From a virus (taxonomy: Duplodnaviria > Caudoviricetes), in the IMG/VR virus record IMGVR_UViG_3300032278_000008, positions 1-55,548 of that record: a stretch of DNA of 55,548 nucleotides, one strand, 5' to 3'. Position numbers and translations under genes: made by a program. This document shows, one piece after another, positions 35,187 to 54,371 of the stretch; the first letter of the stretch is position 1; every line of letters starts with the position of its first letter. Below the pieces are notes generated by a model. The model was given only the letters and a program-made list of their open reading frames with translations. It did not search any database and had not been told where the DNA came from.

Positions 35187-35387
35187 TTATTCGGAGGCTA
35201 ATTCGCCCTCATAATTCAATTGCATAGAAGTGGTAACGTAAGGGTCACTAACTCCCAACATCGCAAATTCCTGCATCCTGACGAAATTATTCTGCTGTTG
35301 AATCATTTGGTTAGTACGCTCACGCCACGTCTTAAAGGTCTCATCCTTTCTTACGAACGGTATTTCTGTTGTTCCTACGCTTGCCAT
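35187..35387 (-). CDS. Small hypothetical virion protein
   Basis: 66 aa; DETFKTWRERTNQM resembles N-terminal motifs of T4-like fibre proteins. Confidence 0.65.
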   Translation of the reverse strand: MASVGTTEIPFVRKDETFKTWRERTNQMIQQQNNFVRMQEFAMLGVSDPYVTTSMQLNYEGELASE

Positions 35388-35392
35388 CAGTC

Positions 35393-35605: not shown

Positions 35606-35615
35606 TGTATATCTC

Positions 35616-38600
35616 CTATGTTAGTGCCATCACTCTCATCTCTCGGACTGCTGGCAGCCAGCACGGATGAGTTGTATGTAATTCAATTTTAATTCTAAAG
35701 TGGTCAAATTCATTAGGTATTTTCTTCAATGGAGTAAAGGTATGCTCAATAAATTCCATATTAGTCACAATTGCCGTATTAGTGATAGTCACACCAGAGT
35801 CTTTCATCTCTCTCCAAGTAACTGGGTCCTCTTCAATAACAGCAAGACCAATTGGATAATCTGGATGTTCTGCTGACACGATTGAGTCAATTTCTAGTAC
35901 AGGCACTTCAACTTTGGATGGCGTTCCATCACCAAGTAAGATTTTCTTATAGAATTTTCTATCTAAATCGTCATCCCAAGTACCGAACCAGATATCATCA
36001 ACTTCATAAAGACTGAGGTCAGTAACGCCTGGAAATGGATAACTTTGTCCTGTAGCATCTGCTCCAACTCCTGTTAAATCTTCTGTTGAGATGAAACAGG
36101 TTCTAATAATTGATTTCATATGAGAAATATCAACTAAGTGGGCTTGAGTAAAGTTTCCTGGATTATCATCACCATCAACATAAGCAGTAGATACTGCCGC
36201 ACTTGAACCAGTATCTTGTATAATACCAGACCAGTTCGCAATCCCTGATTGCTGAACCGTGATAACATTCTCTGGACTATTAGTTCCAGATGGATAAATC
36301 CAAGCATACTCACTTTCAAAATCGTTTACAGTATAATCACCGTGAGTAATAGTATTGATATATGCTTTAACATTGATATATCGTGGAATAACTGTACCAG
36401 TATCATAGTATACTTTAATATACGTATTAGGAACTTCTTGAACTGAAAGCCACATCGTCAAGTCTTCCGCAAAATGAGAAAGTTTAACATCTTTCGATTG
36501 ATAAATTCCCATTTGATTCTTAACAAGGGCCGCAGTATCAAACACAGGATTGTTTACAATGACTGTGCTAAGTCTCTCTTTATTAAGAACTGGAGAAACA
36601 TTTGTATTTTCTGTAGCAAAATTGGCAATATATGAAAGTGCAGTATGAGTATAGCCAGATGCGATAGTATGAGAACCATCAAGCGATATCACATTATCAA
36701 GAACGACATCTTCATTATCTAGAATCCCGCCCTTAATATTAGCAGTATCACCATTCTCAATAGCAGAGAAGTCCATACTACTTCCTGAAATAACTAATGG
36801 TTGAAAATTAGGCATATATTGAACGCAATCTTTGATTCCAGCAAACTCTTTAAAGTCAAGTTGTATTTGCCCTGCTGGTACGAATTGACATCTATTTATC
36901 TGGAACTTAACGTCTTTTAATTGTTCTGCTGTCCACGTCATATTGTTCTGAGAAGTAAACATCGAACCCAGATAAGGCTGTTCGTGTATATATTCTCCAG
37001 TCGCTACATCAACTTGACCTAGTTCAGAAATAAATACATTGTATTCTAATGAACTGGTCTCTGTAACGAAACAATACTCAGTATGATTCATTAGATAAAT
37101 TGGGTCCTCGAATTGAAATCTCGTGCTTACTGTACCGTCTGTAGAAGTAGTAATGTTTTCTGGATAGATTAATACGTCTGCTAGTGGAACAAGCGTTGTT
37201 GATGGATAACCATTTATCATTGTTCGTATTTGCATATGAACGGGCTGTTGTTCTGAATCTTTTGACCAGAAATACAAGTCAATTGAATCAATAAATGCTC
37301 CGCCCTCTTCATCTATATAAAATGATTGTGCTACTGGGTCTCCCCTATTAACTTGCCATCTCTGAATAACTGTCATCGATGTCCTATTATTTGATAGGAC
37401 TCTGCTTCTATTTACATTTCGATTATCAGTTATAATATCTTGTGTATCTTCAACTGCCAAATCTACTTGAAAGTTTGAAAGTGTTGATAGAATATCTCTC
37501 TGGCGTCTTTCGAGAGTACCAGCAGAGGTGAATATACCAACTGCTTGAGTTGTCATCTCTAGAGGATTATCAAAACTATCTTTCAAGTGAAGTAGTTTTG
37601 TACCAGTTCTAATTCTAACACCATCAGGTCCTTCTGAAGGAATCTGCAATACACAATTTCTTATTTGACCTTTTTCGTCAGATGAAACTGGGTCGCCCAT
37701 AGCGCCACCATCAGGTATCATATAAGCATCAACATTAGTTTCATCAAACTCAAAGTGCATAACTGTGTTCGGTCGTAGTTTGTCAACTTCAACTGTTACA
37801 GGTACAGACCTCATCCAAGGAATAGCAGATTGGTCAATAAATCTATCACCGATTTGTGTACGTAAGTCATTTATTTCCATCCAAGAACGTACACCAGTTC
37901 TAAGTTGTTCTTCAACCATCTGTTGATTCTGTTGCCAAACTTCTAATTGAGCAATGTTTCTCCAAACAGTTCGTTGTGCGGCAGTATTACCACCACCAAA
38001 TGTTCTTTGTCCAAGTTGAAATGCTCTAACAGAAGTTCCTGCTCCGCCCCAACCACCAAAGGTAGTTTCTGAACCAGAGCCAACTGCGAATCTTGCCCCG
38101 AAATCTCTCCAACCAGTCCAAGTTGTCTGCCAAGCATTCCAGCGAGTCTGTACGCCAAAATCTTCTACTTGCTGTAGAACGGCATTATTGTTTTCGTTTT
38201 GAATGATAACATCTGGTAAATAGAGTTGTTCAAACCAAGTATCAGATTGTGGTATTAGTCTAACGAATCCTACCCAAGACTTTCTCATAAATGGATTCAA
38301 GTTAAGAACTTGAGACCCGTGAGGCTGTCCAAGCCAGGCTTCTTCAACATTATAATCAAGCGTGTATGTCACACGATTTGATTTAATATCAGTATTGGCC
38401 CCGCCTTCCATATCAAGCCCTTCCATCTCGAATGGTACAGTACATATACCTGCTTCAGGATAGATAGAACAATAATATGCTTCGTCTACTACATCTCCGA
38501 TGCCGTGGTCAACAAATGGGTCAACTAAGATGCCATTTTTATATCTTTGTAAGCCCGCTGTGTCAAAGACTTGCATATCAGCGGTGTCTTTTTCTAGTAA

Positions 38601-41039
38601 ATTAAGTGCAGTATAGTATTCTAATTTTTCAAGTCTATTTTCTATACCACGAATGTCCTGCATCGTAAATCGTTTATTCTTTACGTGAGCGACATTAATA
38701 TTCTTGTGGTCATACGTATACGGTGGTACCATCATCGTATACAAGGTCATTTCGTTCTCTTCTTCAGATGGAAGTATTGGGTCATCTGAAGGGAATCCTT
38801 GTTTTATTTGAAATTTACCGTCATCATTAACAGTCAATCTATCTTTACGTCCTTGATAATAATCATAAGAAGCAGAGATGTTTGAATCTGGTAATGGTAA
38901 ATATGTGCCGACTGCGTAATCGTTATCGGATGCCCTAAAGTCTATATTGTCTGCTTGACTATAGATTTCATTATTAGTGAATGCTCGATATGAAGGAACA
39001 TCATCGTAAAGAATACCAGCATCAGTAAATGAGTTAACAGCAAAATAGTTTGCAGTTGTAATATTACCGAATGTGTAATGTTTGTATGTTACTGAATAAG
39101 TGCCAGGTTGTGATGCGGTTGCGTGTGTCCACTCAAGAGTAGAATCAGCAAAAGTCGTATCAGTTGTGCCACTTGTGTAAGTAAACATCGGTTTAACTTC
39201 TTGAGTATCAGGCGCAATAATAGAAATGATTTCCGTCGTGGCATGAGGTATGGTTAGTTTTTCGTCAACAAGAACATAATCGTTTGTGCTTGTACCGTGA
39301 GATAATGCCCTCCAGTTTGCATTACTCATATACATATTTGCCATAATCTTGATTCCGTGCCCACTTAGATTTGTAGAGGCACTACCAGAGACTTGGTCTA
39401 TAATAGTAATGAGTGCAGTCGTATTTCCTGATAAGTCAGCAGTCCAAGTATCGCCAGCGCCAACTGTTCCGTTCTGAGGTATAATTGATTGGGTGAAGTC
39501 ATCCCAAATATATAGAACTTTTTCCCAGTGCATATCGTTGAAAACAGCAGGCACTGAAGCAACAGCACCAGTTAAGGTTGCTGTAGAATTCTTTTGTGTT
39601 GAGAAATTTATTTGACCAAGAGTAAGTGATGCTGTGATTGGAGTAACATTATACATCCAAGGATAATGAACGCCTTTCTTGACAGTAACACCAGTTGGAC
39701 GATAAAGTTTTGCGTATGTTGCCATATCCCCTTCTGCAACAATGTATAGTGCAGGGGCAATTGCATCAAGTCCAATATCATTCTCGACATATATTCTGTA
39801 TATGTCGCCCATTTGAGTAACGTGGGTAATACGTTTTCTTACGCCAATAGTATTTGGAGTTGTGTTGCCAGAGTTATGACCAGCATCTGTCACGAATATA
39901 ACGTATTCTTTGTTTACTACATTAAAAACGCCATTAATATCGTTGATATTTTGTACTTCAAAGTATGGTCCAAAGTCAGGAACGAGATGGTCATTCGCAA
40001 TGTGATGCGTTGTTCTTGCTCGGTCCGCTTCTACTGTAACAGGAACTAGAAGTTCGTGTTCAAATCCTTTGATATATGCTTTGCCAGGTTCTACTTTAAT
40101 TGAATATTTCTCTGAAGTAGAGCCTTCTTTAAACTCAATTGGGAATGGATTTAGTGTATAGTTGCCAGATTCATCATATGTTCTTTGTGCCATCTCGTTA
40201 GATAGCATTGAATAATCTGTTGACTCGTATTTTGTGGTGATATATCCATCTTCAATATCCATCAGCCACATAAACTTATTGGCTTCAGCAGAATCAGTGT
40301 CTTTAATTAGATGTAATTTTCGTGAAAATCTATCCCCGCCGGGTGCGTTCTGATTATAGAAACCAGAGGCTGGGTCAAGAAGTCGTGGGTCAGTCGTTGA
40401 CTGAATAATTACTTCTTCAATATCGAATCCAACTCTACAAGTTGGTGTAGCACTGAGTGGGTCTAAGAAAATAGTTTGTTCGAGAACTGGAGTAAAGAAA
40501 GCATCTAGCCAGTAAACTCCGTGAAGAACTCTTGCCTCTAATGCGTCTCCCTTCCCAACAACAACGCCTTCTTTATAAATTTGAGTGGGGTCATACCAAG
40601 AGTTGTCAATACAATTTCCATTAGTGTCAAACCCACCTTCGCAGACTGTATCGTATGTTTTTAATACTTCATTTGCTTGAAATGTTCCAGAAAGAATTCT
40701 GTAGTAATAGACAGGCTGAGTTTCATCATCGTGGAGTTGTGTAATTTCAGCAACAGCAAGTGACGATTCCCCAAAAACAATACGATTCAACCACGTTGAA
40801 TCAGTAGCCGCGAGTTGTACCCATTGTCTTTTGTTGATATTAAGATGACCACCTACAACAGGCGAACCATTCTTCCAGATATGGTCTCCAGAAGCAGCCA
40901 TCTGATTCTGAAGAATCGATTGTATCTGCGTTAATTCTCTAGCCTGTACTGCTCGACCAGGATTGAAAAGTATTCTTAAAAATCTATCATCTGGGTCGTA
41001 ATCATCATAATACGGAGATGTGTTGAAATTATATGCCAT
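35616..41039 (-). CDS. Large virion structural protein, DUF4815/VrlC-like (1807 aa)
   Basis: FNTSPYYDDY...ILFNPGRAVQARELTQIQSILQNQ, APGGDR, RTYDESGNY, RFTMQDI...LEYYTALNLLE, DPVAQSF. Confidence 0.85.
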   Translation of the reverse strand: MAYNFNTSPYYDDYDPDDRFLRILFNPGRAVQARELTQIQSILQNQMAASGDHIWKNGSPVVGGHLNINKRQWVQLAATDSTWLNRIVFGESSLAVAEITQLHDDETQPVYYYRILSGTFQANEVLKTYDTVCEGGFDTNGNCIDNSWYDPTQIYKEGVVVGKGDALEARVLHGVYWLDAFFTPVLEQTIFLDPLSATPTCRVGFDIEEVIIQSTTDPRLLDPASGFYNQNAPGGDRFSRKLHLIKDTDSAEANKFMWLMDIEDGYITTKYESTDYSMLSNEMAQRTYDESGNYTLNPFPIEFKEGSTSEKYSIKVEPGKAYIKGFEHELLVPVTVEADRARTTHHIANDHLVPDFGPYFEVQNINDINGVFNVVNKEYVIFVTDAGHNSGNTTPNTIGVRKRITHVTQMGDIYRIYVENDIGLDAIAPALYIVAEGDMATYAKLYRPTGVTVKKGVHYPWMYNVTPITASLTLGQINFSTQKNSTATLTGAVASVPAVFNDMHWEKVLYIWDDFTQSIIPQNGTVGAGDTWTADLSGNTTALITIIDQVSGSASTNLSGHGIKIMANMYMSNANWRALSHGTSTNDYVLVDEKLTIPHATTEIISIIAPDTQEVKPMFTYTSGTTDTTFADSTLEWTHATASQPGTYSVTYKHYTFGNITTANYFAVNSFTDAGILYDDVPSYRAFTNNEIYSQADNIDFRASDNDYAVGTYLPLPDSNISASYDYYQGRKDRLTVNDDGKFQIKQGFPSDDPILPSEEENEMTLYTMMVPPYTYDHKNINVAHVKNKRFTMQDIRGIENRLEKLEYYTALNLLEKDTADMQVFDTAGLQRYKNGILVDPFVDHGIGDVVDEAYYCSIYPEAGICTVPFEMEGLDMEGGANTDIKSNRVTYTLDYNVEEAWLGQPHGSQVLNLNPFMRKSWVGFVRLIPQSDTWFEQLYLPDVIIQNENNNAVLQQVEDFGVQTRWNAWQTTWTGWRDFGARFAVGSGSETTFGGWGGAGTSVRAFQLGQRTFGGGNTAAQRTVWRNIAQLEVWQQNQQMVEEQLRTGVRSWMEINDLRTQIGDRFIDQSAIPWMRSVPVTVEVDKLRPNTVMHFEFDETNVDAYMIPDGGAMGDPVSSDEKGQIRNCVLQIPSEGPDGVRIRTGTKLLHLKDSFDNPLEMTTQAVGIFTSAGTLERRQRDILSTLSNFQVDLAVEDTQDIITDNRNVNRSRVLSNNRTSMTVIQRWQVNRGDPVAQSFYIDEEGGAFIDSIDLYFWSKDSEQQPVHMQIRTMINGYPSTTLVPLADVLIYPENITTSTDGTVSTRFQFEDPIYLMNHTEYCFVTETSSLEYNVFISELGQVDVATGEYIHEQPYLGSMFTSQNNMTWTAEQLKDVKFQINRCQFVPAGQIQLDFKEFAGIKDCVQYMPNFQPLVISGSSMDFSAIENGDTANIKGGILDNEDVVLDNVISLDGSHTIASGYTHTALSYIANFATENTNVSPVLNKERLSTVIVNNPVFDTAALVKNQMGIYQSKDVKLSHFAEDLTMWLSVQEVPNTYIKVYYDTGTVIPRYINVKAYINTITHGDYTVNDFESEYAWIYPSGTNSPENVITVQQSGIANWSGIIQDTGSSAAVSTAYVDGDDNPGNFTQAHLVDISHMKSIIRTCFISTEDLTGVGADATGQSYPFPGVTDLSLYEVDDIWFGTWDDDLDRKFYKKILLGDGTPSKVEVPVLEIDSIVSAEHPDYPIGLAVIEEDPVTWREMKDSGVTITNTAIVTNMEFIEHTFTPLKKIPNEFDHFRIKIELHTTHPCWLPAVREMRVMALT

Positions 41040-41123: not shown

Positions 41124-42134
41124 TTAGAATTCAACTACGAGTTTCAAATCTTCTATCTGGTCAGAAGCACGAGTAATCGCTCGGCGATTCTCAAGATAAA
41201 TTAACTGTCCAGAATCCGCTTCTAAACTTATATTTGCATCGGCATATACAGCCGCTTGGGCTTTAGTTCCACCTCCAGCAAGTTCTGGATTACGTAACAA
41301 TCCAATCTGACGAAAGTCATCGTTCTCTGGGAAACCATCTGAGGTTTCTAATCTAACGTGAATTAGTCCGTGATGAGTCTTTGCTGTAAAGATAGCGTCT
41401 GAATCACCGAAGTCGGCTTGTTCTGAACCCGCTAAAACGGCAGCGCCTTGTATAACAGGCATCCAGTCATTGGTTGTTGAGTTAATAATGTCGTTCAATT
41501 CCAATTTATATAGGAATGTCCATACATAGTTGTCAGACGTTGATATTGGTTGAGCGGTGAGTCCCGAAACATCTCCTGTATAGCCAGTAGGCTCTTCAGA
41601 AGCACCAGTTGGTAGCCATAAACCACCGATAGTACCTTCACAAGTTGCTCGTGAAACAGCAGTTCCACCGTCATAGATACCACCGACATAGCATTTGCCA
41701 GTTGATGGTTCGCCTGTACAAGAATATACACGATATTCGGAATTCATTACTGTAGAATGTTCTCCGATTTTTGATACGAATGAACGTCCAGGCTCTGCAA
41801 TTCCAACAATACCGCTAGCGGCATCGCCATCAAATGCGATAGTATCACCTTCATCCCAGTTAATACGTGGAAGAACTGGTGAAATATCATCGTTCTGAAT
41901 TCTTTTGGTACCAACGATGTCGGCCCAATACTGACTTTCATCCTCATCGAGAGGGTCAGGCAAAGTAAAGTTACCTGAAGATTCGTCATTTCCCTGTGCA
42001 TCATCTGGCCAAGCATCAGAACGTCCAAAGCCAAGATACAGGAAGTTATCGTCAACAGAACCAGTAGTTTTGAACTGGTCGATGAAAACCATCAAGTTCT
42101 GTGTTCTGAATTTACTGGTTACAATTGCACCCAT
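41124..42134 (-). CDS. gp8: Baseplate wedge subunit gp8
   Basis: YLGFGRSDAW, PRINW, VMNSEYRVY.C, DNYVWTFLY, FRQIGLLRNP, SGQLIYLENR..ITRASDQIEDLKLVVEF. Confidence 0.9.
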   Translation of the reverse strand: MGAIVTSKFRTQNLMVFIDQFKTTGSVDDNFLYLGFGRSDAWPDDAQGNDESSGNFTLPDPLDEDESQYWADIVGTKRIQNDDISPVLPRINWDEGDTIAFDGDAASGIVGIAEPGRSFVSKIGEHSTVMNSEYRVYSCTGEPSTGKCYVGGIYDGGTAVSRATCEGTIGGLWLPTGASEEPTGYTGDVSGLTAQPISTSDNYVWTFLYKLELNDIINSTTNDWMPVIQGAAVLAGSEQADFGDSDAIFTAKTHHGLIHVRLETSDGFPENDDFRQIGLLRNPELAGGGTKAQAAVYADANISLEADSGQLIYLENRRAITRASDQIEDLKLVVEF

Positions 42135-42218: not shown

Positions 42219-45200
42219 TTATGATGGCGGAACTGGCCACACATTACTTTCATCAATGATAGTAGTATGTTCGTGGTCCCCTAATCCGCCGCCTGCAGTG
42301 CTTTGACTCCATTCACCGCCTTGTTGTACGCTACCAGTATAAGATATCAAATTGTGATTATCATAGTCACTGGTCTGTGATACTATACCGTATCCGCTTC
42401 CGTCCCACTCAAGAACTAATTCGTGCGTATATTGTGCCGCGTGAGTAGTATCTCTCTGTGGAGTAGTTATATATGCCCCACCCAATAGACTGACATAATC
42501 TGCAACACTTAACCAATAATCGTGGTCGTGATAACCACCAGATAGTAAGAATGTATGAACAATTGTTCCAGTACCTGGTATGATATCGAATTGGCTGATT
42601 CCATCTACAACAAACGCCCCATCATTACCAGTATTCGGATTGAATTTAATCGTATATCCGTGATAATGACTCTCTCCACCATTCGGTGAATCAAAGAATA
42701 TGAAGCCATAATTAGCATCTTGGGCGTTGATTAACTCATTTGCCTGTGCTAGAGTGACTGGCTCACACATTCTGCCCGCATATTGGCCTGCTGTATCAAG
42801 AGTACATCCTGTAAATAATAGATGGTCGTGACTGCCTTCGCCCTCAATGAACGATGGCTGAATCCAAACAATCGGTGGATTATTCGCTTGAAGAATTGTA
42901 TTAATCCACGTCTTTCTTTCTGCCAAATCTTCGACTGTCTCTGTCGTTACTACATCAGAAACATCATAAGTAATTACTGGGTCTCCGACAACAACATTAT
43001 TTGTACCATTAGAATAGAAGGTCGTTGTCGTTGTAGTCGTAGTGACCTGAATAGTCGTTGTTTCAGTCGTTGTGACCAAATCACTATACGTTGTTATTAT
43101 AGTCGTATCACCTGGGTCTGGCGTATCAGGATACGTGGTCGTAACTGGCGATAATTCTGTTGATGTCTGTGAAGTAGTAATATTCGGTGCAGAATTAAGA
43201 ACCTCATCACTTGTTTCTATCTTCGTTACATATATGCTACCACCTGTTTGTTGTGGTGTAACCTCGAAATTTGGATTCCATTCAATTGTTAAGTTATGCC
43301 AGTGAAGCCCTTCTGAAAGATTCTCGACTACAGATATATAATATTTTGATGGGTCTTGAAGAACATCTTCAATACCGCCTCTAATCCAAGTTATAGAAGA
43401 TTCACAATAGAATATATCGAGCGTATCATTCCATTTGATTGTATATTCGTGAAAATGGGCGCCCTCAATAGAATCGTAAATAATAACTGAGTCTACAACT
43501 CCATCAATCAATTGCATACCTTGTTCAATTGTTAATCCATCACAATAACGAATTTGATTGATAAGCGGGCCTTCAGCAAATGGCCCAACAAGTGTACCAT
43601 TATGAAAGTGAGGATGTGAACCACCAGGATATGGATAACCAGGTGAACCAAAATCAGGCACTGTCTCTAATAACTCGTTAAATCCAGGTCGTGAAGAAAG
43701 ATTTGAAACATTTGTTGGATGTGCGTGAGAACGTGGGTCAGTTTCATAGAACTGAGCACCATCATTTGATTCCCATTTCTCTACATCTAAAGCAACAAAC
43801 GACAATAAATTATCGTCATATGTAATTTGTATACCGTGATAATGGTCTCCGTTAGCGATAGATGAATACATTATTACTTCATCAACATCACCATTAATTA
43901 AGTCGGTCGCCTGATTATCATCTAATGCTAATGATTGTCTGCCAGTATTTACACCAATTGTATCTAAGTAAGTGCCATTGAATGAGTGTAAATGGTCTGG
44001 TTGAGACCCTGCTAGATTATCCCAATCGTGTGCATTTGATAGAGTAATATCAGGTGCAGTGTATAGTGGTGTACCATTCCAACCCAGATGTGTTAACACA
44101 CCATCCATTGTGAGAGTATGTTCGTGAGTACGTAGAACTGTATCTACTGGACTATATTCGCCTACGCCATTTACATCCCATAATTCTTCTACTTCATCAG
44201 CAACAAATTGTTGAGTAGAAAGATTCCACATAATTTTGTACTTGTGATAATGTAGATTTTGTCCACTATCAGTAATGGAAGAGAAAACAATAACTTCGTT
44301 AACAACACCATTTGCTAACTCTTCTGCTTGAATTCTTGTAATTGGCATTGCAAGTCTATCTGTGTTTGCACCAAATGTATCTAGTGTTGAACTATCAAAG
44401 TAATGAACGTGAGTATTTTCACCATATTCATTCGCACCTAAAATCTGTAAAATAGGAGCAGTTTCAATATAGAATGTCGTTGGTCCATCTTCTTCTTCGG
44501 GTGACCAAGGGGTATCTGCGCCAGTATCATATGGTTCCCACTCTCCGGTTTCTGAGTTATAGTGCCAGCCAGCAGATGAACCAATTTGAATTTGTTCGTC
44601 TAAAACGGCTGACCACGAAATAATTACTGGATGAATATGTGACTGAGGGTCATTCCATTCCCATATTGGGAAGAACGCATCCCATTCAGTCATCTCAATA
44701 TCTGATATTTCAAGTGCATCAAATTGTTCTAGGGCTGGGTCGTATGTTACTTGATATCCGTGAACGTGTGCCGTTTCAGATGCTGGTATTTGAGATTGTG
44801 CAGGAGTTTCAGTAGACGAATCAAATGTCTCTGTCAATTTGTATATGGCAGTATTGTTTGGTCCAGTGCCTTGATACGTGTTAATACCAACACGAGTAGA
44901 GATATAAATCTCTCCCGCAGTATCTTCACCAATCGTTAGTAATGACCTATCGTGAGTTGTTAATGTTACTATCTGTGCAACTGGGTCCCAGAATGAAAGT
45001 GCTTTTCTTTTCCAACCAATCGCACTGCTCCAAGTTGGTTCAGAGAATGTATCGTGACCTTCTGGATTCGTTTGACCAATTAAATTAAATTGATTATATG
45101 TGGCATTCCACATAATAGTAAATGTATGTGTATAAAGATTTGCGTGAACACTATCAGACTGAACGACAACTACAGTGGAACCAGGGTTCGCTTGTAGAGT

Positions 45201-48200
45201 TTCTACTTGTGCAGGTGTTAATTCGCAAGTGTGACTATGGTCAGCAATTGGAGTTCCGCTTGAGTTTGGTGTTATATCAAAAGTCGCTGTAAGTCCCTCT
45301 GGGTCCTCTTCAAGTGCATATAGATGTCCAGAAGTGCCTGCCCAGCCTGTACTCCAATCACCAAATATATACTTGTCTGTCATACCATCTAATAGAGTAC
45401 CACGATATACGTAGCCACCAGAGATACTAATGCCAGTTCCGTGACTATATTCGTGTATCGGATGTTTTAAATCATTTAAATATGCTGTAGTATTAGCATA
45501 TTGTTGGTCAAGTGCGATTTGGTCGATGATTGCTTGGTCTTCCTCGTAGAAGTGATATGCCTCCATCACTCTCCAACCATAGTTGCCACCGGCTTCTATA
45601 ATATTAATTTCTTCAAACTTATTTTGTCCAACGTCTGCACACCATAATCTATCTTCGCTATCGAAAGAGAAGCGCCAAGGATTACGTAATCCATATGCGA
45701 ATATCTCTGGTCTGAAATATACTAGACCAGTATCGCCATATAGTTTCGCATTAGCGCCTGCAAATGGATTATCTGCAGGGATTGTATACGGTATTCCCTG
45801 CACGACATCTTCAGTCGGGTCTATTCTAAGAATAGTGCCGAGAAGATTAGATGGGTTCTGAGCATTACCATAAACACCGTGACCACCGTGACCGCCTGAT
45901 GACGATGTATCACCCGCTGAACCGCCATCTCCAAGTCCAATGTATAACATTCCGTCTGGTCCAAATCTAACTTCACCACCATTATGATTCATATCTGGCT
46001 GTGGAATTTCGAGAAGAATCCTTTCAGTCGCAACGTCTACACTCGCACCTGCCACATTAGCAGTAAATTCTGAGATAACAGTAGTCGAAAGTGGATAACC
46101 GTAGGCACCAGTTGCTGGTCCTTGTTCTGTCATATAAAAGACGTATAACTTACCGTTTGTTGCGTAGTCTGGATGAAATGCTAGTCCTAAAGTACCACGT
46201 TCATCATAAGCACCAAATGGGCCTAATCCAATAACGTGTTGTATAGTCGTTAAGTCAAAGAATCCTTCTGTAACACCCGTTGTTGTGTGTAAGAGATATA
46301 CAAGTCCTGACTGGTCAACAATAGCAATTTTATCTGGGTCCATCGGATATGCTACCATTGTTGCAATATCTGTAACTTGGTCTGTTACTAGAACATCACC
46401 AAGTAAGTCGCCTGTGTCGCCAGAACCTGGAACAGATGCAATAAAGTTGCTTGAATATATTCTAACCCAGTCTACATCTGGAATTAATGTGTCGCTCCAC
46501 GTCTGAGTATGTTGGAATGTAAATGTCGCTTCACCAGTATGAGTGACAAGAGTTGCATCATCTATAGAATTAAAGACGTTTTGTGGCCAAGTGTTACCTG
46601 CGTAGTCACTTCCATCCATTATTGATGGGTCAACAATTAATTCTGGTCTGAAGTTATAACATATCCAAGTCGTAACTGGTGTATAAGTAAATCCGTGAGT
46701 TAAGTCATTGCCTTGAAAATCTGTGTGATTTTCCCAGTCAGAGTCATACGTAACTGTATATTCGTGATAGTGTGCAGTCAAACCACCGGCACTATCTATT
46801 GTGCCCCCTTGAAATACTCCGTCAACTGTATTTGGAACGCCATCAGCAAGTTTACCAATATTATCGTATAGAGTAACTGAGGCAACTACGCCATCAATTA
46901 AGTCTCTCGCCTGTTGTCTTGTAAGACAATCAGAAGTACGTCCTCTTTGTCTGTCTACTACTTGTCCATCTTCAAACCAGTGTATGTGATTCGTAGCCTC
47001 TGGAAGAAATGCTGTTGTGTGTACACTTGCGTGAAACTCTGGAATCTCAAAGGCATTGTGACTTATTAATGCTCTTGCTTGGTCATAAGAAAGACCAGAA
47101 GCAGTTTGTTCTGTTCCGTGTACAATTAAATTTGGAATTGCTTCCCCATTAAAAGCGTGGTCGTGGAATGCCGCAGTGCCGACTGTTATATCTGGCAATT
47201 CAAGTCCTTTAGTTACCATCGTATGAACTAGAGGGGCAAATCCATTCTTTCGTCCGTGAGAGTGAATCTCATCAGGTGCATTTTCAAATGCTTGAATTTC
47301 GACTGAATCAATAACATCATTAGTAATACCGTATACTTTCTGAACGATAGTATCTTCTCTGTTTTTCTCGAAAAATCCATAAGACTTTTCTGGAGCATAT
47401 TCGGCTTCGGGTAGAAACGCTTCGACCCATTCGACCATTCTCTGAAGATGTTTGAATACTCCCATTTCCCAAATACTGCAGGAAATCATACGACCGTCTG
47501 TCGCACTCTCTATGTCATCTCTAATAACTAATTCAGTTACCGATGGTGGAAACTCATCAATTGGAAGAACTTTAAGAAGATTATAGAATTCAAACAATAC
47601 TTTTTCTGGATAAGCATCAAGTCCCAACTTAGCAGTATCATTCAACCAAGAAATTGTATATAATTTTTCTTTAACAGAACTACCAATTCTCTGTGAATCG
47701 AGTTCTAAGCGTACAGATAAATGGTCGCCAGGGGCTAACCAATCACTCGCTGAAATTAGAGATGCCCTATTCTCAAGGGTACTCATCATTTCTATGACAT
47801 ATTCTTCAAATCCCTTCTCAAGATATACACCAAAACCAGTGTGAGCGTGTCCAAGTCTGCCGTGTTGTTCTGACTCTTGGTCCCAGATATCGATAGCAAC
47901 ATCAAGATAGGAGAAGATATAGATAAGTGCTTTAACATAATCTTCAGGCATCTCAACAGTCATATCAACTGTAGACTGGAATGAGAACTCAGCAAATAGT
48001 TTAAGACCAACTGGGTGAACCAGTTTCTTTAAGACTTCTCGATATGATTGAATAGGAACTTCAGATTTAACCACATAAGAGAAATCTTGATAGTAATCGT
48101 TGTCTTGTAGTTTTCTATCAGAAGATAAGAATGCGGCAGAATCTAACCAATAGCCATTTGTTTTCCAAACAGCCGTATTAACAAGTGGTTGTGTATCTGG

Positions 48201-49466
48201 ATTAACAAGAGCCTCGCAAGTCTCTCTACTATCAGGCGGTACTGAAACTCCAGTTAGAATATCATTTTCTACAGTCTGTATAACAGTATCAACATCAAGA
48301 AGTGGGTACCACGCCAAGAATGCTGATTCACCATAATAAGGCGAATCAACTATGTGACCTTCTGGGTGAAGTGCGCCCAAACAGTCAATCATATTGTTGA
48401 AAGTGTATAGAGTGGGCCAATCAACTGACGTTGTACAGAAAGATATAGTTGGATTAGGTTCCCAATATTGACCGCCCGTATTGTAAATCTTTTCTCCAAG
48501 TAAGAAATCGCCCGCAACATTCAGCAAATTCATCTTGAATGGATTAACGTCTATACCAGTTATTTCAGCAGTCGCTCCAGAAGTTAGACCTGTAATCGAA
48601 ACTCTTTCAGGTACAAAGTGTACTTCATTCGGATGACCAGAAACATACATCCATTTGTCTAACCATTGATGACCATTAACAATACATTCACCTTCAGTTC
48701 TTATGCCCTCTGAAATAACGATTGCGACATATGGAGTTACAAATTGTTGTGTTCCTATATCTTCCCAAATCGGTTCGTTTTTAACAAAGGTTCCGTTAAC
48801 TTCTGTGAGTAGTAGTCTTTCGTAATCTGTAGTAGAAATGGACTCATCCATATCTACGAATGCAGTAGCACCCGAGATTTGACCGACTATCTTTTTATTG
48901 TATATTGCTCTGACAGTTTCAGCAACGTGTACATTTTCAGTCTCGCCATAATATTCGGAGTTTGCATCTTCACTTGCGTGGTCAGTTAGAATTGTAATCC
49001 ATTGAGGTTCATACCATATAGACCCAGATGCTTTCATCATCCATTGTTTTGGATACATCGTTTCAACAGTCGTATCAAAATCTCGTCTGAAGAGAAAGTC
49101 TAGTGCAGAAGTAGTACCTTTCTGCCTATATACTGGCTGAATGTTCTTTGCTAAGAAAGATTTTGAAGTTGTTGGAACTTGGGGGTCAATAGAAGTATGA
49201 GGAGTACCGTGAAGATACTGCTTCTCAAATTCTGGGATAAATTGGTCTAGAGCGTGGTCAACATCTACGTTCTGAATTAACTCAGTTATCTGATTATATT
49301 CACCGAGTTCGCCATTAACACCCGTTTCTCGCTCTAAGTATTCAAAATACTTTCGGAGAAAGGTGATGAACATCGGATGGTCTTCCCGAACATAATCGGG
49401 GACCATACGCTCCACAAAGATTGATAGAAACTTCGCTGGAGATTTAGTAAATTTATCGTTTGCCAT
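42219..49466 (-). CDS. gp7: Baseplate wedge gp7-like protein fused to a glucose/sorbosone dehydrogenase-like propeller and HxH repeats (2415 aa)
   Basis: N-terminal PDYVREDHPMFITFLRKYFEYLE, YRQKGT, LQDNDYYQDFSYVVKS, LVHPVG; lies between gp6 and gp8; internal GSDH motifs. Confidence 0.8.
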   Translation of the reverse strand: MANDKFTKSPAKFLSIFVERMVPDYVREDHPMFITFLRKYFEYLERETGVNGELGEYNQITELIQNVDVDHALDQFIPEFEKQYLHGTPHTSIDPQVPTTSKSFLAKNIQPVYRQKGTTSALDFLFRRDFDTTVETMYPKQWMMKASGSIWYEPQWITILTDHASEDANSEYYGETENVHVAETVRAIYNKKIVGQISGATAFVDMDESISTTDYERLLLTEVNGTFVKNEPIWEDIGTQQFVTPYVAIVISEGIRTEGECIVNGHQWLDKWMYVSGHPNEVHFVPERVSITGLTSGATAEITGIDVNPFKMNLLNVAGDFLLGEKIYNTGGQYWEPNPTISFCTTSVDWPTLYTFNNMIDCLGALHPEGHIVDSPYYGESAFLAWYPLLDVDTVIQTVENDILTGVSVPPDSRETCEALVNPDTQPLVNTAVWKTNGYWLDSAAFLSSDRKLQDNDYYQDFSYVVKSEVPIQSYREVLKKLVHPVGLKLFAEFSFQSTVDMTVEMPEDYVKALIYIFSYLDVAIDIWDQESEQHGRLGHAHTGFGVYLEKGFEEYVIEMMSTLENRASLISASDWLAPGDHLSVRLELDSQRIGSSVKEKLYTISWLNDTAKLGLDAYPEKVLFEFYNLLKVLPIDEFPPSVTELVIRDDIESATDGRMISCSIWEMGVFKHLQRMVEWVEAFLPEAEYAPEKSYGFFEKNREDTIVQKVYGITNDVIDSVEIQAFENAPDEIHSHGRKNGFAPLVHTMVTKGLELPDITVGTAAFHDHAFNGEAIPNLIVHGTEQTASGLSYDQARALISHNAFEIPEFHASVHTTAFLPEATNHIHWFEDGQVVDRQRGRTSDCLTRQQARDLIDGVVASVTLYDNIGKLADGVPNTVDGVFQGGTIDSAGGLTAHYHEYTVTYDSDWENHTDFQGNDLTHGFTYTPVTTWICYNFRPELIVDPSIMDGSDYAGNTWPQNVFNSIDDATLVTHTGEATFTFQHTQTWSDTLIPDVDWVRIYSSNFIASVPGSGDTGDLLGDVLVTDQVTDIATMVAYPMDPDKIAIVDQSGLVYLLHTTTGVTEGFFDLTTIQHVIGLGPFGAYDERGTLGLAFHPDYATNGKLYVFYMTEQGPATGAYGYPLSTTVISEFTANVAGASVDVATERILLEIPQPDMNHNGGEVRFGPDGMLYIGLGDGGSAGDTSSSGGHGGHGVYGNAQNPSNLLGTILRIDPTEDVVQGIPYTIPADNPFAGANAKLYGDTGLVYFRPEIFAYGLRNPWRFSFDSEDRLWCADVGQNKFEEINIIEAGGNYGWRVMEAYHFYEEDQAIIDQIALDQQYANTTAYLNDLKHPIHEYSHGTGISISGGYVYRGTLLDGMTDKYIFGDWSTGWAGTSGHLYALEEDPEGLTATFDITPNSSGTPIADHSHTCELTPAQVETLQANPGSTVVVVQSDSVHANLYTHTFTIMWNATYNQFNLIGQTNPEGHDTFSEPTWSSAIGWKRKALSFWDPVAQIVTLTTHDRSLLTIGEDTAGEIYISTRVGINTYQGTGPNNTAIYKLTETFDSSTETPAQSQIPASETAHVHGYQVTYDPALEQFDALEISDIEMTEWDAFFPIWEWNDPQSHIHPVIISWSAVLDEQIQIGSSAGWHYNSETGEWEPYDTGADTPWSPEEEDGPTTFYIETAPILQILGANEYGENTHVHYFDSSTLDTFGANTDRLAMPITRIQAEELANGVVNEVIVFSSITDSGQNLHYHKYKIMWNLSTQQFVADEVEELWDVNGVGEYSPVDTVLRTHEHTLTMDGVLTHLGWNGTPLYTAPDITLSNAHDWDNLAGSQPDHLHSFNGTYLDTIGVNTGRQSLALDDNQATDLINGDVDEVIMYSSIANGDHYHGIQITYDDNLLSFVALDVEKWESNDGAQFYETDPRSHAHPTNVSNLSSRPGFNELLETVPDFGSPGYPYPGGSHPHFHNGTLVGPFAEGPLINQIRYCDGLTIEQGMQLIDGVVDSVIIYDSIEGAHFHEYTIKWNDTLDIFYCESSITWIRGGIEDVLQDPSKYYISVVENLSEGLHWHNLTIEWNPNFEVTPQQTGGSIYVTKIETSDEVLNSAPNITTSQTSTELSPVTTTYPDTPDPGDTTIITTYSDLVTTTETTTIQVTTTTTTTTFYSNGTNNVVVGDPVITYDVSDVVTTETVEDLAERKTWINTILQANNPPIVWIQPSFIEGEGSHDHLLFTGCTLDTAGQYAGRMCEPVTLAQANELINAQDANYGFIFFDSPNGGESHYHGYTIKFNPNTGNDGAFVVDGISQFDIIPGTGTIVHTFLLSGGYHDHDYWLSVADYVSLLGGAYITTPQRDTTHAAQYTHELVLEWDGSGYGIVSQTSDYDNHNLISYTGSVQQGGEWSQSTAGGGLGDHEHTTIIDESNVWPVPPS

Positions 49467-49481: not shown

Positions 49482-51245
49482 TCAAGATATCGCCTGCATT
49501 GTAACACTACTTTGATTTAGTACCAGCAGGTTACTTCTTATTGCAGTAATGTCGTTTGACTGTGGTATAGCGTACAAACTAATTACTGAGTTTGTGTCCA
49601 GAACTGGTCTAAATCCGAGTAACTCAATAATTCCATTTTCATAGTCAATGGTTCCTTGTTCAGTATTCAAAAATTGTTCGTTGACAATATCATACAGAAG
49701 AATATTCCCTTGACCATTGTCAAGTAATGCGTACTGTGTGCTAGTTTCTGTATTGCCAAATACTGAGGAAACAGCAGAACCCGGAGTAATTGCATTATCA
49801 TATTTGAAAATGTAGTTACCAACGGTGTTCGATGCTTGTATGAAAAATTTCTTATAAAATTTAACAGAAGTCAAGTTATTACTAATAGAAGGGTCAGCAG
49901 AATCAATAGTATTTCCAAGTTGAGAATATCTCAAGATGGATTTAAATGCACTAACTTCTGCTTCAAAGAAGGCCGCAATATCTTCAATAATTTTCGTTTG
50001 AACTTCACTAGATGACATTGCTGTTAATACTGGATTATATTTAACTGTAGTCTCGACATCAATATACGTATATTCTGGTGCAGTAATAATAGGATTGATT
50101 GCCAGCATATTATATTTTGATAGAATATCCTCTGTTAATTTTTGCTTTGTTAGAGGTGATAATTCAAGACCGTGTCTTGGTTTAATACAGATAAAGACAG
50201 CACCATATTGTGGTGGGTCATTATCTTCTCCGCCCCAAACTGCAATAGACTCAATGTTTGGATATTTTTCTATCAAAATACTTTTATAATCTTCAGCCGT
50301 TACTGCCCTATCTTGTCTTTCATAGGCTCGCGGCGCTGTTGATTTAATGTTTTCTGTACTCTCTGGAAAAGAACCAAGAGAAGAAACATCAACAGTGTTT
50401 ACTGTTACTAGACTCGCTGTATAGACACTATCAATAGTTGATTCTAATGCGAATGTTTGCTCATTAATTGTTGAAGTATAATTTCCTGTTTCTCCTAGAG
50501 TAGACAAATATGTTATTTTAATGACTTGACCATCAAGAGGTCTTTTCCCGAAAATACCATTACCAAAATAAATTTCTGTAACTCCATCGAGTCCTTCTTG
50601 TAAGAAGTATATAAGTGATTCATTATTCAATTCAGATAAAATTTCATTTTCGGCCCAAGGTTTATCATTAACAGTCATTTTGATAGTTGACCTATCACAC
50701 GTTGGGTCGTTAACTAAAAATGCTTGTGTTTCAGAAATAGCATCATAAGTCCATTCTAAGCCCTTCAATGAACCTTGACGTAATGTAATTTCTCCTGCAA
50801 AGTCTCCGCCTTCATCTTCAAAAATATTGATTGTGTCTAGATTAGTAAAAGGTAATGGTGTGCCGTTAATATTCGATACAAAATGTGTGCCCTCTTCTAT
50901 AACAATATAAGATGGGTCATAACCAGTCGTATCGAATTGTAATTTGACAATTGCTTCAGAGGCCGTCGCTGATTTTGGAACATATCCAATCGCTTTTGCG
51001 TGAGATACTACAGAATTTCTCAGGGTAGCCGTATCAAGAAATGATTCGTTGATAGCCATATTTGTATGAAAGCCCATATAATGAGTTGTGTATGCCATAA
51101 CATCTAACATAACACTCATACCAGAGCCTTCAAAGTCGTAGTCTATAAATTCATTTTGGCCTTTTAGATACTCTTTGATGTTACTCTTAATACCATCAAA
51201 CTCTAGGTTTGATAAATCTAATGCTTTTGGGTTATTTGTTGCCAT
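49482..51245 (-). CDS. gp6: Baseplate wedge subunit gp6
   Basis: LEFDGIK, DYDFEGSG, ESFLDTATLRNSVVSHAK, QDRAVTAEDY, VWGGEDNDPPQYG, GTIDYENG. Confidence 0.96.
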   Translation of the reverse strand: MATNNPKALDLSNLEFDGIKSNIKEYLKGQNEFIDYDFEGSGMSVMLDVMAYTTHYMGFHTNMAINESFLDTATLRNSVVSHAKAIGYVPKSATASEAIVKLQFDTTGYDPSYIVIEEGTHFVSNINGTPLPFTNLDTINIFEDEGGDFAGEITLRQGSLKGLEWTYDAISETQAFLVNDPTCDRSTIKMTVNDKPWAENEILSELNNESLIYFLQEGLDGVTEIYFGNGIFGKRPLDGQVIKITYLSTLGETGNYTSTINEQTFALESTIDSVYTASLVTVNTVDVSSLGSFPESTENIKSTAPRAYERQDRAVTAEDYKSILIEKYPNIESIAVWGGEDNDPPQYGAVFICIKPRHGLELSPLTKQKLTEDILSKYNMLAINPIITAPEYTYIDVETTVKYNPVLTAMSSSEVQTKIIEDIAAFFEAEVSAFKSILRYSQLGNTIDSADPSISNNLTSVKFYKKFFIQASNTVGNYIFKYDNAITPGSAVSSVFGNTETSTQYALLDNGQGNILLYDIVNEQFLNTEQGTIDYENGIIELLGFRPVLDTNSVISLYAIPQSNDITAIRSNLLVLNQSSVTMQAIS

Positions 51246-51252: not shown

Positions 51253-51660
51253 CTACCTCAATCTATTTAAGAAGAAATCTAATTCTACTGGAGAGCCTTC
51301 GTTGATTGGAAAGTATACGATTGAAACTTCATATCCATTTCTATCTGGGTCTGCCGTTACCTGAACTCCTTGTAATTCAATTCTGGGCTCGAAGGAATTA
51401 ATTGCTTGTTCAATAGCCCCTTCCAATATAACACGAGTCTCAGTAACCATAGGCTCAAACAATGAATGATATATTGTTGAACCAAAATCACTTTGAAATA
51501 CTCGTTCTCCTCGCTGTGTTTTGATGATATTAATGACGGAACCGTTAATAGCATCGACATCTGAACGACCTACAATATCATTGGTCAATGGATGTACAAG
51601 AAAATCGAGGTCTAAATCTCTATACTTTCTAAGTCTTTTTGTATGAATCGGTGCCGGCAT
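51253..51660 (-). CDS. gp25: Baseplate wedge subunit gp25
   Basis: YRDLDLDF..HP.T.D, GERVFQSDFGS, LFEP, FEPRI. Confidence 0.95.
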   Translation of the reverse strand: MPAPIHTKRLRKYRDLDLDFLVHPLTNDIVGRSDVDAINGSVINIIKTQRGERVFQSDFGSTIYHSLFEPMVTETRVILEGAIEQAINSFEPRIELQGVQVTADPDRNGYEVSIVYFPINEGSPVELDFFLNRLR

Positions 51661-52007: not shown

Positions 52008-54371
52008 TTAAGCGTTCTTCCCTAGTAATGCACTGAAAGTCAATGATGGTAATTTTTTAGCATCAAATGCCTTCGCTGATGGTACTTTCGATTTTGTGTT
52101 TACATTCTTTTTATTCGTGTATAATCCCCAAGATTCGAGTGCTTTGTTGGCAGATGTACTTCTTTCTGTTCCTTTTGCACAAACCCAAGCCCCATTTGCG
52201 TTTTCACACACCGTTTTCGACCTGGCAGTGTCAATATCATAAGAACGACTTCCACCAGAAGCACCAGTAGAACTCTCTTGTTGTTCAATCCATTTGCCAC
52301 TATATTGTTCGCAAACTGATTTTCCTGGTAGATATGGGTCGACTTTTGTTGCTCCATACTTTGCCATCACTACTACTTCAGCAGATTGATAGATATTCCC
52401 GTCATCACCCATCACATACTCACCAGAACCTGATGCCTGTGCCGCATCAACTTTTGCTTGTAAAGTCGCTGTATAGAAACTTGGTTCAATCAATTTATAT
52501 CCGTCTGGAAATGCCAAAGCAGTAAAATCACAAGACCCGACTTCTTTTGAAGAAGCAACTGCAGGTTTTGGCTTACATCGACAAGTTTCTACATTTGACC
52601 AATCACCAGTTTTCATTGCGTGTTCTATTGCTTCCATTGATTGATGATAATCAGATACGTCACCACCAAGATTAGATTTATATTCTGCGGCCGCTGTTAA
52701 AGAAGATGCTTGAGCAATCGCCGCACCGACCATAGACTTTACTGTGCCCGGCATTGCCTCTGCAACTGCAAAACTGGCTGACGCAAGAGGTAAAAATGGT
52801 GCAGGGTCATTCGCATCAGGAGATGATTTTGCAGGTGGCGATTTCTTTAATGGTTTAGATGCTACTGCAGGTGCACCAAAGAGTTTAGTGGGGTCAGCAA
52901 TAGCATCTCGAATTTTAGTCGCAATTACTGGTAGACCGCTGTCCGCAATAGCAGAAGAGGGACTCATTGGAGGTGCATCGCCTACAATATTACCGAAAAC
53001 AGCAGATAAAGTTGGTGCAATACTGCCCATCGCGGCTTCAATTGAACCTGCGATTTGTACTTCATTCTCTGTCATTTCTCTCTCGTTCCAAGTACCGCCA
53101 GTTTCACCGCATTCTGCTTGACTTCTATTTGTAGAACTGCCTCTTTCTAAATTTCTATTATCAACGCCACCAGAACACCATCCAACTTTATGTACTTTCG
53201 CAACGGCTTCTTTGTCTCGGGCGACTGCTTCATATTTTTTATCGGCCGCATTAGCAATAAAAGTTTCTTTTGTATCAGCGAAACGATTTACTCCTGCTTT
53301 AATTTCTTTTGTCAGAGTTTTAACGGCATCTTCTTTTGGTACCCAACCGACTCCGTGAATATATGTTAACGCATCTGCGGTATATTCTTCGCCTACCTCT
53401 GCTATCTCAGTGCCAGAAGGAATACTATCAGCAACAGTTGACAAACTCTTTAATCCTTCTTGAGCGGCCTGTGTGAACTTCGGTACAGTGGGTACACCAC
53501 TTGCTAGTCCACCTAAAATTCCACCTAAATCGATAATAGGGTCTGTAGGAGTTACTGATTGTCCAGTTGCTTGTTCGTATAATTTAACGATATCTGCCAT
53601 CACTGGTTCAGCAATATGAGATAACATTTGATTATTATTTACAAGGGCACAAGGGTCAGACGTTGCCAATTTAGCAAATGCGGCCCATTGTGCTAATTTA
53701 GTGAGAGCGGCCTGCATTGCATCAACATCTTTTTGTATCAGACCATTAAGGGCACCCATCATATCGCCACACATATTATTCATTCCTGATATAAGACCTT
53801 GTATGACACTGGTATTAACCAGAATATCAGCCAATTTATTTGGGTCAGTTAAATCACGTATGATGTTATCGAGTCGAGATGATATTTGTGGTATATCGCC
53901 TAAGTTTAGTGCATCATCCATTATGCCGGCAGATTCAAATAATGTAGCAAATCCTGCCACACAATCTATCATTGCATCTGCTGAACCTAGTGCATCAGAT
54001 AATTCTCTTCCTGCTTGTTGAATGCCTGAATTTTTAATGTAATCTGTTGACGCGGCTCTTAAGGCATCTTCAGCAAAGTCTCCACAGTGTGTGAACGCAT
54101 CAGATACGTCTTGAACTTCTTGCAATACTCCCAATATTTCAGAGGCATCATTAGGGAATGCCGTTTGAATAGCAACTTGGTCAATCTTATCCATAACGTG
54201 GAGTGACACTGCGGTTGACTGCATTCTGGCAACTTGGTCAAACGCAGGCGACCGTAACTCGCCGCCAACTCTTGTTAGAGCATCGTTTACGTCAGAGAAA
54301 AATGATGTTCCTCGCTCTGCTATAAGGGCAGCACTTGCTGTTGTCGATGTTGATATTCCTGGTTCTGGCAT
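52008..54371 (-). CDS. Hypothetical Ala-rich protein (787 aa) with C-terminal Cys/Trp motifs
   Basis: Long co-oriented ORF, AGGA RBS; helical N-terminal half; AECGETGGTW, VCEQYSGKW, VCENANGAW. Confidence 0.7.
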   Translation of the reverse strand: MPEPGISTSTTASAALIAERGTSFFSDVNDALTRVGGELRSPAFDQVARMQSTAVSLHVMDKIDQVAIQTAFPNDASEILGVLQEVQDVSDAFTHCGDFAEDALRAASTDYIKNSGIQQAGRELSDALGSADAMIDCVAGFATLFESAGIMDDALNLGDIPQISSRLDNIIRDLTDPNKLADILVNTSVIQGLISGMNNMCGDMMGALNGLIQKDVDAMQAALTKLAQWAAFAKLATSDPCALVNNNQMLSHIAEPVMADIVKLYEQATGQSVTPTDPIIDLGGILGGLASGVPTVPKFTQAAQEGLKSLSTVADSIPSGTEIAEVGEEYTADALTYIHGVGWVPKEDAVKTLTKEIKAGVNRFADTKETFIANAADKKYEAVARDKEAVAKVHKVGWCSGGVDNRNLERGSSTNRSQAECGETGGTWNEREMTENEVQIAGSIEAAMGSIAPTLSAVFGNIVGDAPPMSPSSAIADSGLPVIATKIRDAIADPTKLFGAPAVASKPLKKSPPAKSSPDANDPAPFLPLASASFAVAEAMPGTVKSMVGAAIAQASSLTAAAEYKSNLGGDVSDYHQSMEAIEHAMKTGDWSNVETCRCKPKPAVASSKEVGSCDFTALAFPDGYKLIEPSFYTATLQAKVDAAQASGSGEYVMGDDGNIYQSAEVVVMAKYGATKVDPYLPGKSVCEQYSGKWIEQQESSTGASGGSRSYDIDTARSKTVCENANGAWVCAKGTERSTSANKALESWGLYTNKKNVNTKSKVPSAKAFDAKKLPSLTFSALLGKNA

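Follow-up and report, generated by a model that had tools for sequence, protein, structure and literature searches.

What is a β-propeller of the sugar dehydrogenase type doing in the baseplate of a marine phage? The question is raised by an open reading frame (ORF) of 2415 aa plus stop, encoded at 42219..49466 on the minus strand of the IMG/VR virus record IMGVR_UViG_3300032278_000008; the whole stretch of DNA analysed here, a linear record of 55,548 bases, is referred to as the window. The ORF is uninterrupted, with no internal stop, and displays a gp7-like baseplate wedge protein at the N terminus followed by a lineage-specific extension of about 1900 aa. An earlier sequence-only reading had described, at 44830-46410, a glucose/sorbosone dehydrogenase (GSDH) propeller fused inside this protein, and the ten motifs it quoted are all present in the translation of 44829-46409 (minus strand), one base off. 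The protein is a phage adsorption protein bearing a captured cellular domain, to which an orphan histidine-repeat domain is attached, and this captured domain probably helps the phage to engage the surface of its host.

The propeller covers aa 1025-1546 (44829..46394, minus strand), including the His-rich insert described below, and was identified by Pfam, by a search of the Protein Data Bank (PDB), by an AlphaFold2 (AF2) model compared with Foldseek and by a multiple alignment. The Pfam GSDH scan, which the sequence-only reading had proposed as a check, returned PF07995 at 111.1 bits against a cut-off of 25 (E 9.2e-32; 115.4 bits in a six-frame search of the record), the matched stretch being aa 1087-1369 (45360..46208, minus strand) over profile positions 46-276 of 332. 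Among solved structures, phmmer gave HHIP as the best match by sequence (E 1.6e-25), followed by the soluble glucose dehydrogenase sGDH (5e-13) and other aldose sugar dehydrogenases. The AF2 model was computed from the window sequence and 15 of 23 related loci, the near-duplicates (L008, L009, L011, L016, L019, L021) and the fragments (L023, L024) having been left out; its confidence is only moderate, with a predicted local distance difference test score (pLDDT) of 64.8 and a predicted template modelling score (pTM) of 0.67. Foldseek aligned it first to HHIP 7pgm (E 5.6e-21, template modelling score 0.64 normalised to the target), then to sGDH (1.7e-15), 3a9g (9.6e-15) and other solved six-bladed enzymes that use pyrroloquinoline quinone (PQQ). 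The six-bladed fold of the solved members is thus recovered, and the claim that a GSDH/HHIP propeller lies in frame inside a gp7-like protein is borne out by the Pfam match, the HHIP match and the alignment.

This alignment comprised the phage domain, 17 cellular homologues, an Acinetobacter sGDH homologue (near-identical to 1c9u, from which residues are numbered) and a YliI-like protein. Every motif common to the 17 cellular homologues is kept in the phage domain (YDERG, NHNGG, GDGG, LRID, DNPF, GLRNPWR, DVGQ..EEIN, GGNYGW, GGYVYRG, FGDW, GED..GE), and NHNGG, GDGG, G[LFM]RNP and GGNYGW each occur in all 32 clusters of related phage proteins introduced below. His1161 of NHNGG (45984..45986, minus strand) aligns with His144 of sGDH and the Arg1261-Asn1262 pair of GLRNP (45681..45686, minus strand) with Arg228-Asn229, both in 32/32 clusters; together with the Asp of GDGG, these are the positions that had been read as retained, and they are. 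In sGDH, His144 is described as the catalytic base, and Arg228 and Asn229 as flanking the PQQ carbonyls (PMC6881810).

The C-terminal part departs from this pattern and is HHIP-like, as had been noticed. Three C-terminal basic residues of sGDH, Lys377, Arg406 and Arg408, hold the PQQ carboxylates. The proven PQQ enzymes have an RxR at this point ('RYR' in sGDH, 'RIR' in the YliI-like protein), where the phage domain and 17/17 HHIP-like cellular homologues have 'LLTIGED' instead, in the region where the alignment is least secure. The NCBIfam model of the sGDH family, TIGR03606, scores 66.6 bits against a cut-off of 434.55. The domain is hence a full member of the GSDH/HHIP superfamily that lies outside the characterised sGDH family, and these comparisons of sequence would neither demonstrate nor exclude the use of PQQ.

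Could the fusion have been produced by the assembly or by gene calling? The one point in favour of such an artefact is that a lone metagenomic record, of about 30% completeness, makes up the window; we give the artefact practically no chance, because 32 protein clusters from several sources, 23 IMG/VR loci, bridging contigs and an even GC content across the gene (0.39-0.42) rule it out, and with it the chimeric assembly against which the sequence-only reading had cautioned. A protein search restricted to 1328-4227 aa and scored on the propeller region listed 120 proteins, among which 32 clusters, with identities of 53-100%, are members of one family with the ORF. Both Pfam domains are found in 27 of them, the other five being N-terminally truncated, and domain mapping gives one order of parts throughout: the gp7-like N-terminus, a His module, the propeller with its His insert and four to five further His modules. 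Some of these clusters lie on contigs of about 145-153 kb, and the 23 related loci in IMG/VR are 58-94% identical. At least 87% of the gene's sampled words were present in 17 marine DNA runs, some of which may be the source sample. We checked contigs from three runs not flagged as a possible source (X10, X14 and X17), each from a different coded study; all 30 bins are covered by them, with at least 99% identity at the junctions. The upstream junction near 46410 is bridged by X10 record 4, X14 record 13 and X17 record 21, and the downstream junction near 44830 by X10 record 2 and X14 record 11. An RNA library, X18, gave identical contigs only at 44751-45641, which is no proof of transcription.

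The nature of the carrier was deduced from its N-terminal region, aa 1-520 (47907..49466, minus strand). Family profiles named 'baseplate wedge subunit' together match aa 12-511, the strongest stretch being phrog_17744 over aa 12-239 (E 1.9e-46), and PF23786 scores 30.5 bits against a cut-off of 27, with no single stretch passing alone. In a collection of 50,697 deposited or cultured phage records, none shares more than the N-terminal ~500 residues; tblastn matches in isolate phages are confined to aa 14-514 and annotated as baseplate wedge subunit, and megablast of the gene against the phage records gave no match. When aa 1-520 were used as a single phmmer query against solved structures, no PDB chain was retrieved at E ≤ 1, and the gp7 label is therefore drawn from PHROG and Pfam profiles and from synteny. 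The synteny is that of a gp7-type gene, in the order gp25-gp6-gp7-gp8: a gp25-like baseplate wedge subunit (51253..51660; phrog_261, E 4.7e-38) and a gp6 homologue (49482..51245; phrog_219, E 7.7e-159) lie upstream and a gp8 homologue (41124..42134; PF09215 Phage-Gp8, E 1.3e-31) downstream, all on the minus strand. Judged by these profiles and this gene order, the ORF is a wedge protein of the gp7 type. Between its N-terminal region and the propeller, aa 521-1024 (46395..47906, minus strand) match no known family and carry HxH pairs at aa 540, 735, 768, 827 and 899.

In order to compare the parts of the protein, we used the mean identity to the family protein P0001 across 26 full-length relatives, the five truncated ones being left out. 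Identity is 0.74 in the propeller core, 0.66 in the gp7-like N-terminus and 0.56 in the His insert, and the corresponding values for the eight most distant relatives are 0.65, 0.54 and 0.45. Conservation peaks in the propeller core, and no hypervariable tip is seen within the 2415 aa. Such conservation is unlike that of a hypervariable receptor tip and points to a conserved function of the pocket, be it ligand binding or catalysis. The sequence-only reading had imagined the propeller as a sugar-oxidising enzyme or a lectin-like receptor binder displayed on the baseplate, of which the second is closer to what we prefer. It had missed that the propeller is the most conserved portion and not a variable tip.

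Our tentative preference goes to a propeller displayed on the baseplate, whose retained pocket would engage a conserved sugar or other small ligand of the host envelope, binding being more likely than turnover. An ancestor of the phage group would have taken up a complete propeller of the HHIP-like GSDH branch into the ~1900-residue extension, which is presumably exposed at the baseplate periphery; the propeller would then have been inherited vertically under strong constraint, with the pocket residues intact. During adsorption, the conserved pocket would contact its envelope ligand on the host, and the HxH modules may act as metal-stabilised spacers, one of which has been grafted into a hairpin of the propeller. 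Turnover seems to us less likely than binding by an apo-enzyme that serves as a lectin, because the RxR of the proven PQQ enzymes is missing and because virions assemble in the cytoplasm, whereas known enzymes of this family acquire PQQ after export.

Several observations weigh against this proposal. An active enzyme would account for the strong conservation and the unaltered catalytic-type residues no less well than a lectin, and phage receptor-binding modules are usually the most variable part of their protein, whereas this propeller is the least variable. Among the long cellular homologues listed, 15/87 are fused to domains which we take, from their Pfam accessions, to be cupredoxin (9) or cytochrome c (6). 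Further, the propeller model is of moderate confidence, the gp7 label comes from profiles and gene order, and the placement of the His insert relative to the pocket (see below) is read from the predicted order of strands.

Part of this evidence leads to the main alternative, which we consider possible but rather unlikely, namely an active virion-borne dehydrogenase of the quinoprotein type, which would bind PQQ or a related quinone and a metal and, at the baseplate, would oxidise a sugar belonging to the envelope or capsule of the host, and in which the His-rich modules may serve as electron-accepting metal centres. Its pocket would be in place, with the catalytic base and Arg-Asn equivalents in every cluster, all family motifs kept and the strongest conservation of the whole protein, but the RxR is lost in the phage as in its 17 nearest cellular homologues, where the alignment is weakest, and the TIGR03606 score falls far below the cut-off. 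The cupredoxin and cytochrome c fusions of cellular homologues speak in its favour, and a His module sits directly inside the propeller in 16/16 aligned sequences; against this, the module has no detectable similarity to cupredoxins or to any solved fold, and we found no HHIP-like prokaryotic member with proven activity in a search of the literature and databases. Loading of the cofactor is a further difficulty, given cytoplasmic assembly of the virion and PQQ loading after export, and a PqqC-type gene (PF03070) was found in 0/5 related partial virus records, 27-69% complete, where absence is no proof.

The even conservation of the whole 2415-aa protein, free of a hypervariable tip, is also what an internal structural component would show, and raises an unlikely second alternative: a protein-binding or purely architectural module that would dock another protein of the baseplate or fibre, or a protein of the host surface, the 'catalytic' residues being kept only for the stability of the fold. 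HHIP, which binds Hedgehog through its propeller loops, is indeed the best solved match by both sequence and fold, and the giant neighbours of 1807, 2530 and 1195 aa encoded downstream need attachment sites. However, HHIP itself has lost the Arg-Asn pair (GLHDP) that the phage retains, the propeller is more conserved than the wedge-forming N-terminus, and in a second gp7 lineage described below the propeller is an optional C-terminal add-on, present in 1/48 loci, which fits an accessory surface function better.

The sequence-only reading had also noted a His module before the last blade. This insert is real and consists of ~93 extra residues between 'ALEEDPEG' and 'WKRKAL' when compared to the cellular, sGDH and YliI-like proteins; it corresponds to a short-form module in the hairpin before the last blade (aa ~1392-1484; 45015..45293, minus strand) and matches a profile made from the protein's other His modules at E 1.4e-21. 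What had gone unseen is that it is one copy of a repeat of ~85 aa that takes up much of the protein, being present about six times at full length. With a repeat profile made from six seeds, complete copies were located at aa 823-924, 1410-1478, 1681-1767, 1821-1902, 1946-2031 and 2209-2298, plus four partial ones. The first of these is His module A (46695-47000, minus strand), and the segment C-terminal to the propeller, aa 1547-2415 (42222..44828, minus strand), is an array of modules that includes partial copies at aa 1558-1589, 2043-2068 and 2337-2356. The insert is present in 16/16 aligned sequences and has five invariant His (positions 391, 393, 422, 428 and 452 of P0002). The predicted strand order puts it in blade five, within the hairpin that joins strands three and four; in the standard propeller topology this loop lies on the face opposite the pocket, which would place the insert on that face. 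The propeller of some relatives has additional Cys-rich, Trp/Thr-rich loop insertions of ~60-120 aa, located after the His module in L012-L014 and after the first blade in L015, L020 and L022, and it therefore tolerates further grafts.

The repeats are marked by paired histidines. Between aa 521 and 2415 there are 22 HxH motifs, when ~3.1 are expected from the His content, and 38 of their 43 His are invariant in 26 relatives, with a mean conservation of 0.98 as compared to 0.67 for all residues. When two units were aligned across 16 sequences, with identities as low as 42%, the 12 His of six HxH motifs were all invariant, and there are about three HxH per unit of ~130 aa. Searches with the module gave chance-level matches only in Pfam at E ≤ 5, none in NCBIfam, a mere His-tag artefact in a PDB profile search (E 0.45) and no usable match in the ESM Atlas, and no other ORF of the window carries it, including the three giant ORFs downstream of gp8. 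A model of the His unit reached a pLDDT of 70.6, and its best hits by Foldseek (E 0.05) and VIA-align (Z 3.8) are not convincing; prediction of a complex of three copies of the two-unit segment A2 with Fe scored 0.00 and is silent on trimerisation. Against 1.84 billion cluster representatives the profile had four matches, all from this phage family, and the repeat thus appears to be an orphan domain found only there. Most probably, the HxH modules bind metal and have a structural role, as spacers that make the extension stiffer. That they would instead relay electrons or carry iron in a working baseplate oxidoreductase, through ~21 conserved pairs per chain, we regard as quite improbable. A Thr-rich low-complexity stretch at 42972-43214 (aa ~2085-2165), with a run of eight Thr, separates His modules and may be a flexible or glycosylated linker.

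Where does the propeller come from? The nearest free-standing relatives are 43-47% identical over the propeller, and the top-scoring group, made of 519-532-aa proteins, maps to metagenome-assembled genomes of Thermoplasmatales/Thermoplasmatota. A 'WSTGFFVPNG'-type indel after FGDW is shared by the phage, the Thermoplasmatota-type proteins and a Phycisphaerae protein, and most bacterial homologues are devoid of it. We computed a quick maximum-likelihood tree of 113 rows, the cellular sample of which had been picked for closeness to P0128 (79/80 loci kept and 12 picked proteins). The 16 phage propellers form one clade, with a Shimodaira-Hasegawa-like approximate likelihood ratio (SH-aLRT) support of 99-100, which adjoins the Thermoplasmatota-type clade on a stem of 0.81 changes per column, with a long-branch warning. 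From this topology we conclude that a single acquisition would have occurred at the base of the phage family; no donor can be named, because of the long branch and the bias of the cellular sample towards P0128. The bacterial origin put forward by the sequence-only reading was thus not borne out, the nearest cellular relatives being of the archaeal Thermoplasmatota type and the donor phylogeny designating no lineage.

The cellular homologues have hydrophobic N-termini resembling signal or lipoprotein sequences, as judged by eye in the alignment, and the family therefore appears to work outside the cytoplasm. Besides the cupredoxin and cytochrome c fusions, 'plastocyanin' occurs in one Joint Genome Institute (JGI) name and in one plasmid annotation, which suggests that at least part of the HHIP-like branch is redox-active. 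Several long cellular homologues (P0035, P0036, P0124 and P0037) have two GSDH propellers in tandem, combined in P0036 with BACON, DUF11 and fn3 domains.

A second fusion was found in P0102 (2821 aa), a non-orthologous giant gp7-like protein that carries the propeller at its extreme C-terminus and has no His modules. Among 48 IMG/VR loci related to P0102, the propeller is present in one only (L107:5974-14556, 87% identical); the remaining loci end at about residue 2390, with complete ORFs. In the P0102 propeller both the His (AVHNGG) and GFRNP are retained, and a long helical insert is common to it and the main phage family; it joins the main phage clade with weak support, an SH-aLRT of 86, not starred and with a long-branch warning. 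Two captures, or a single one with later exchange among phages, are equally likely, and the propeller would thus have reached gp7 extensions on two or more occasions or passed from phage to phage. In both cases, its presence in a second gp7 lineage speaks for an accessory role at the baseplate on which selection can act.

Cellular domains that act on carbohydrates or bind them are known to have been recruited into the tail and baseplate proteins of phages. The sequence-only reading knew of no account of the present fusion, and we found no description of it in a full-text literature search judged from abstracts, nor in the phage records. A GSDH/HHIP-type propeller in a baseplate or tail role was not found in the 50,697 deposited phage records, in which GSDH matches are limited to four contigs, from records labelled Acinetobacter phage MD-2021a; the neighbours of the matched genes there carry annotations of ordinary cellular genes. 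Two of these contigs (CAKLQH020000008.1 and CAKLQH020000031.1, of 133 kb and 44 kb; L025 and L026) carry sGDH (gdhB-type), yliI-type and rarA genes and look like bacterial chromosome rather than phage. The BFVD library gave no strong match to any phage protein, its strong matches being to giant-virus bins only. Some family members have been automatically named 'glucose/arabinose dehydrogenase' by their source pipelines; the sequences are therefore public but uninterpreted. Throughout a lineage of marine T4-like phages the propeller has become fixed, with a gene near-identical in the 17 marine DNA runs, and it offers a concrete handle on how an uncultured and widespread phage group touches its host, as well as a natural test of the function of the large HHIP-like prokaryotic branch. 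The nearly invariant His of the repeat bear on the metal, possibly iron, carried by marine virions. Should the oxidoreductase explanation prove true, a redox enzyme and a new metal-binding domain would be built into a phage adsorption machine.

The window contains the structural module of a T4-like myovirus, nearly all on the minus strand, with portal, tail tube, tail sheath, large and small terminase and neck proteins, then a gp5-like fragment, the gp25-like protein, gp6, the fusion ORF, gp8 and three more giant proteins. The gp6 homologue is only 34-36% identical to its best matches among the phage records, which are Desulfovibrio phage 7757, Pelagibacter phage HTVC008M, Methylophilales phage Melnitz and cyanophages. 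From this we place the phage in an uncultured lineage, as a marine T4-like myovirus. No tRNA was found within the window, and psbA (PF00124) was found in 0/5 of the related partial records mentioned above, with the same reservation on absence. The giant ORFs downstream of gp8 (23920-41039) encode 1807 aa (DUF4815), 2530 aa and 1195 aa, the latter two having no Pfam match. On the other side, a 787-aa ORF with no PHROG or Pfam match (52008-54371) lies between gp25 and a phrog_1644 'minor coat protein' ORF (54387-55103); the latter is next to the gp5-like fragment. A sugar-modification island interrupts the structural module at 12061-19148; it comprises a PfkB kinase fused to a cytidylyltransferase-like domain (HldE-like) and a small WxcM/cupin-like protein, both on the plus strand, two NodU/CmcH-like carbamoyltransferases, a nucleotide-sugar epimerase and an interposed paralogue of the phrog_1644 'minor coat protein'. 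The GC skew reverses locally at the two plus-strand genes.

How does this protein compare with known systems? All family motifs are shared with prokaryotic HHIP-like proteins annotated 'PQQ-dependent sugar dehydrogenase' (PF07995), such as P0125, P0128 and P0133 of the Thermoplasmatota type and the Bacteroidota lipoprotein-like P0143 and P0145. These are free-standing, apparently exported proteins of 400-530 aa, whereas the phage copy is embedded in a virion protein and differs by the ~93-aa His module, an extra Gly/His-rich loop, a longer helical insert and a long stem in the tree. Vertebrate HHIP (2wfx, 7pgm) is the closest solved relative. It is a binding protein in which RxR is absent as in the phage, and the entry 7pgm is a complex with heparin; its His is retained, whereas the GLRNP of the phage and prokaryotic proteins reads GLHDP in HHIP, and its EGF domains and Hedgehog-binding role have no counterpart in the phage protein. 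The enzymes sGDH of A. calcoaceticus (1c9u), YliI of E. coli (2g8s) and 3a9g of P. aerophilum have the same six-bladed fold and keep the equivalents of His144 and Arg228/Asn229, although the identity of the phage domain to sGDH and the aldose sugar dehydrogenases is only about 14-16% in the structural alignment and the phage domain is without RxR.

The likeness to T4 gp7 lies in the position between gp6 and gp8 and in the 'baseplate wedge subunit' profile matches. T4 gp7 has about 1030 aa and, unlike the phage protein, neither a propeller nor HxH repeats. Conserved paired His in a marine phage tail protein also recall the T4 gp37 fibre tip, where, according to PMC11705849 (citing Bartual 2010 and Bonnain 2016), HxH pairs coordinate iron; the same source relates the proposal that such iron sites make marine phages iron carriers, the 'Ferrojan horse'. 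In gp37, three chains of the trimer give one HxH each. Here the HxH motifs stand instead in a globular-looking repeat of ~85-130 aa, about three per unit, in a protein expected once per wedge, and three HxH in a ~130-aa unit would allow six-His sites to form within one chain.

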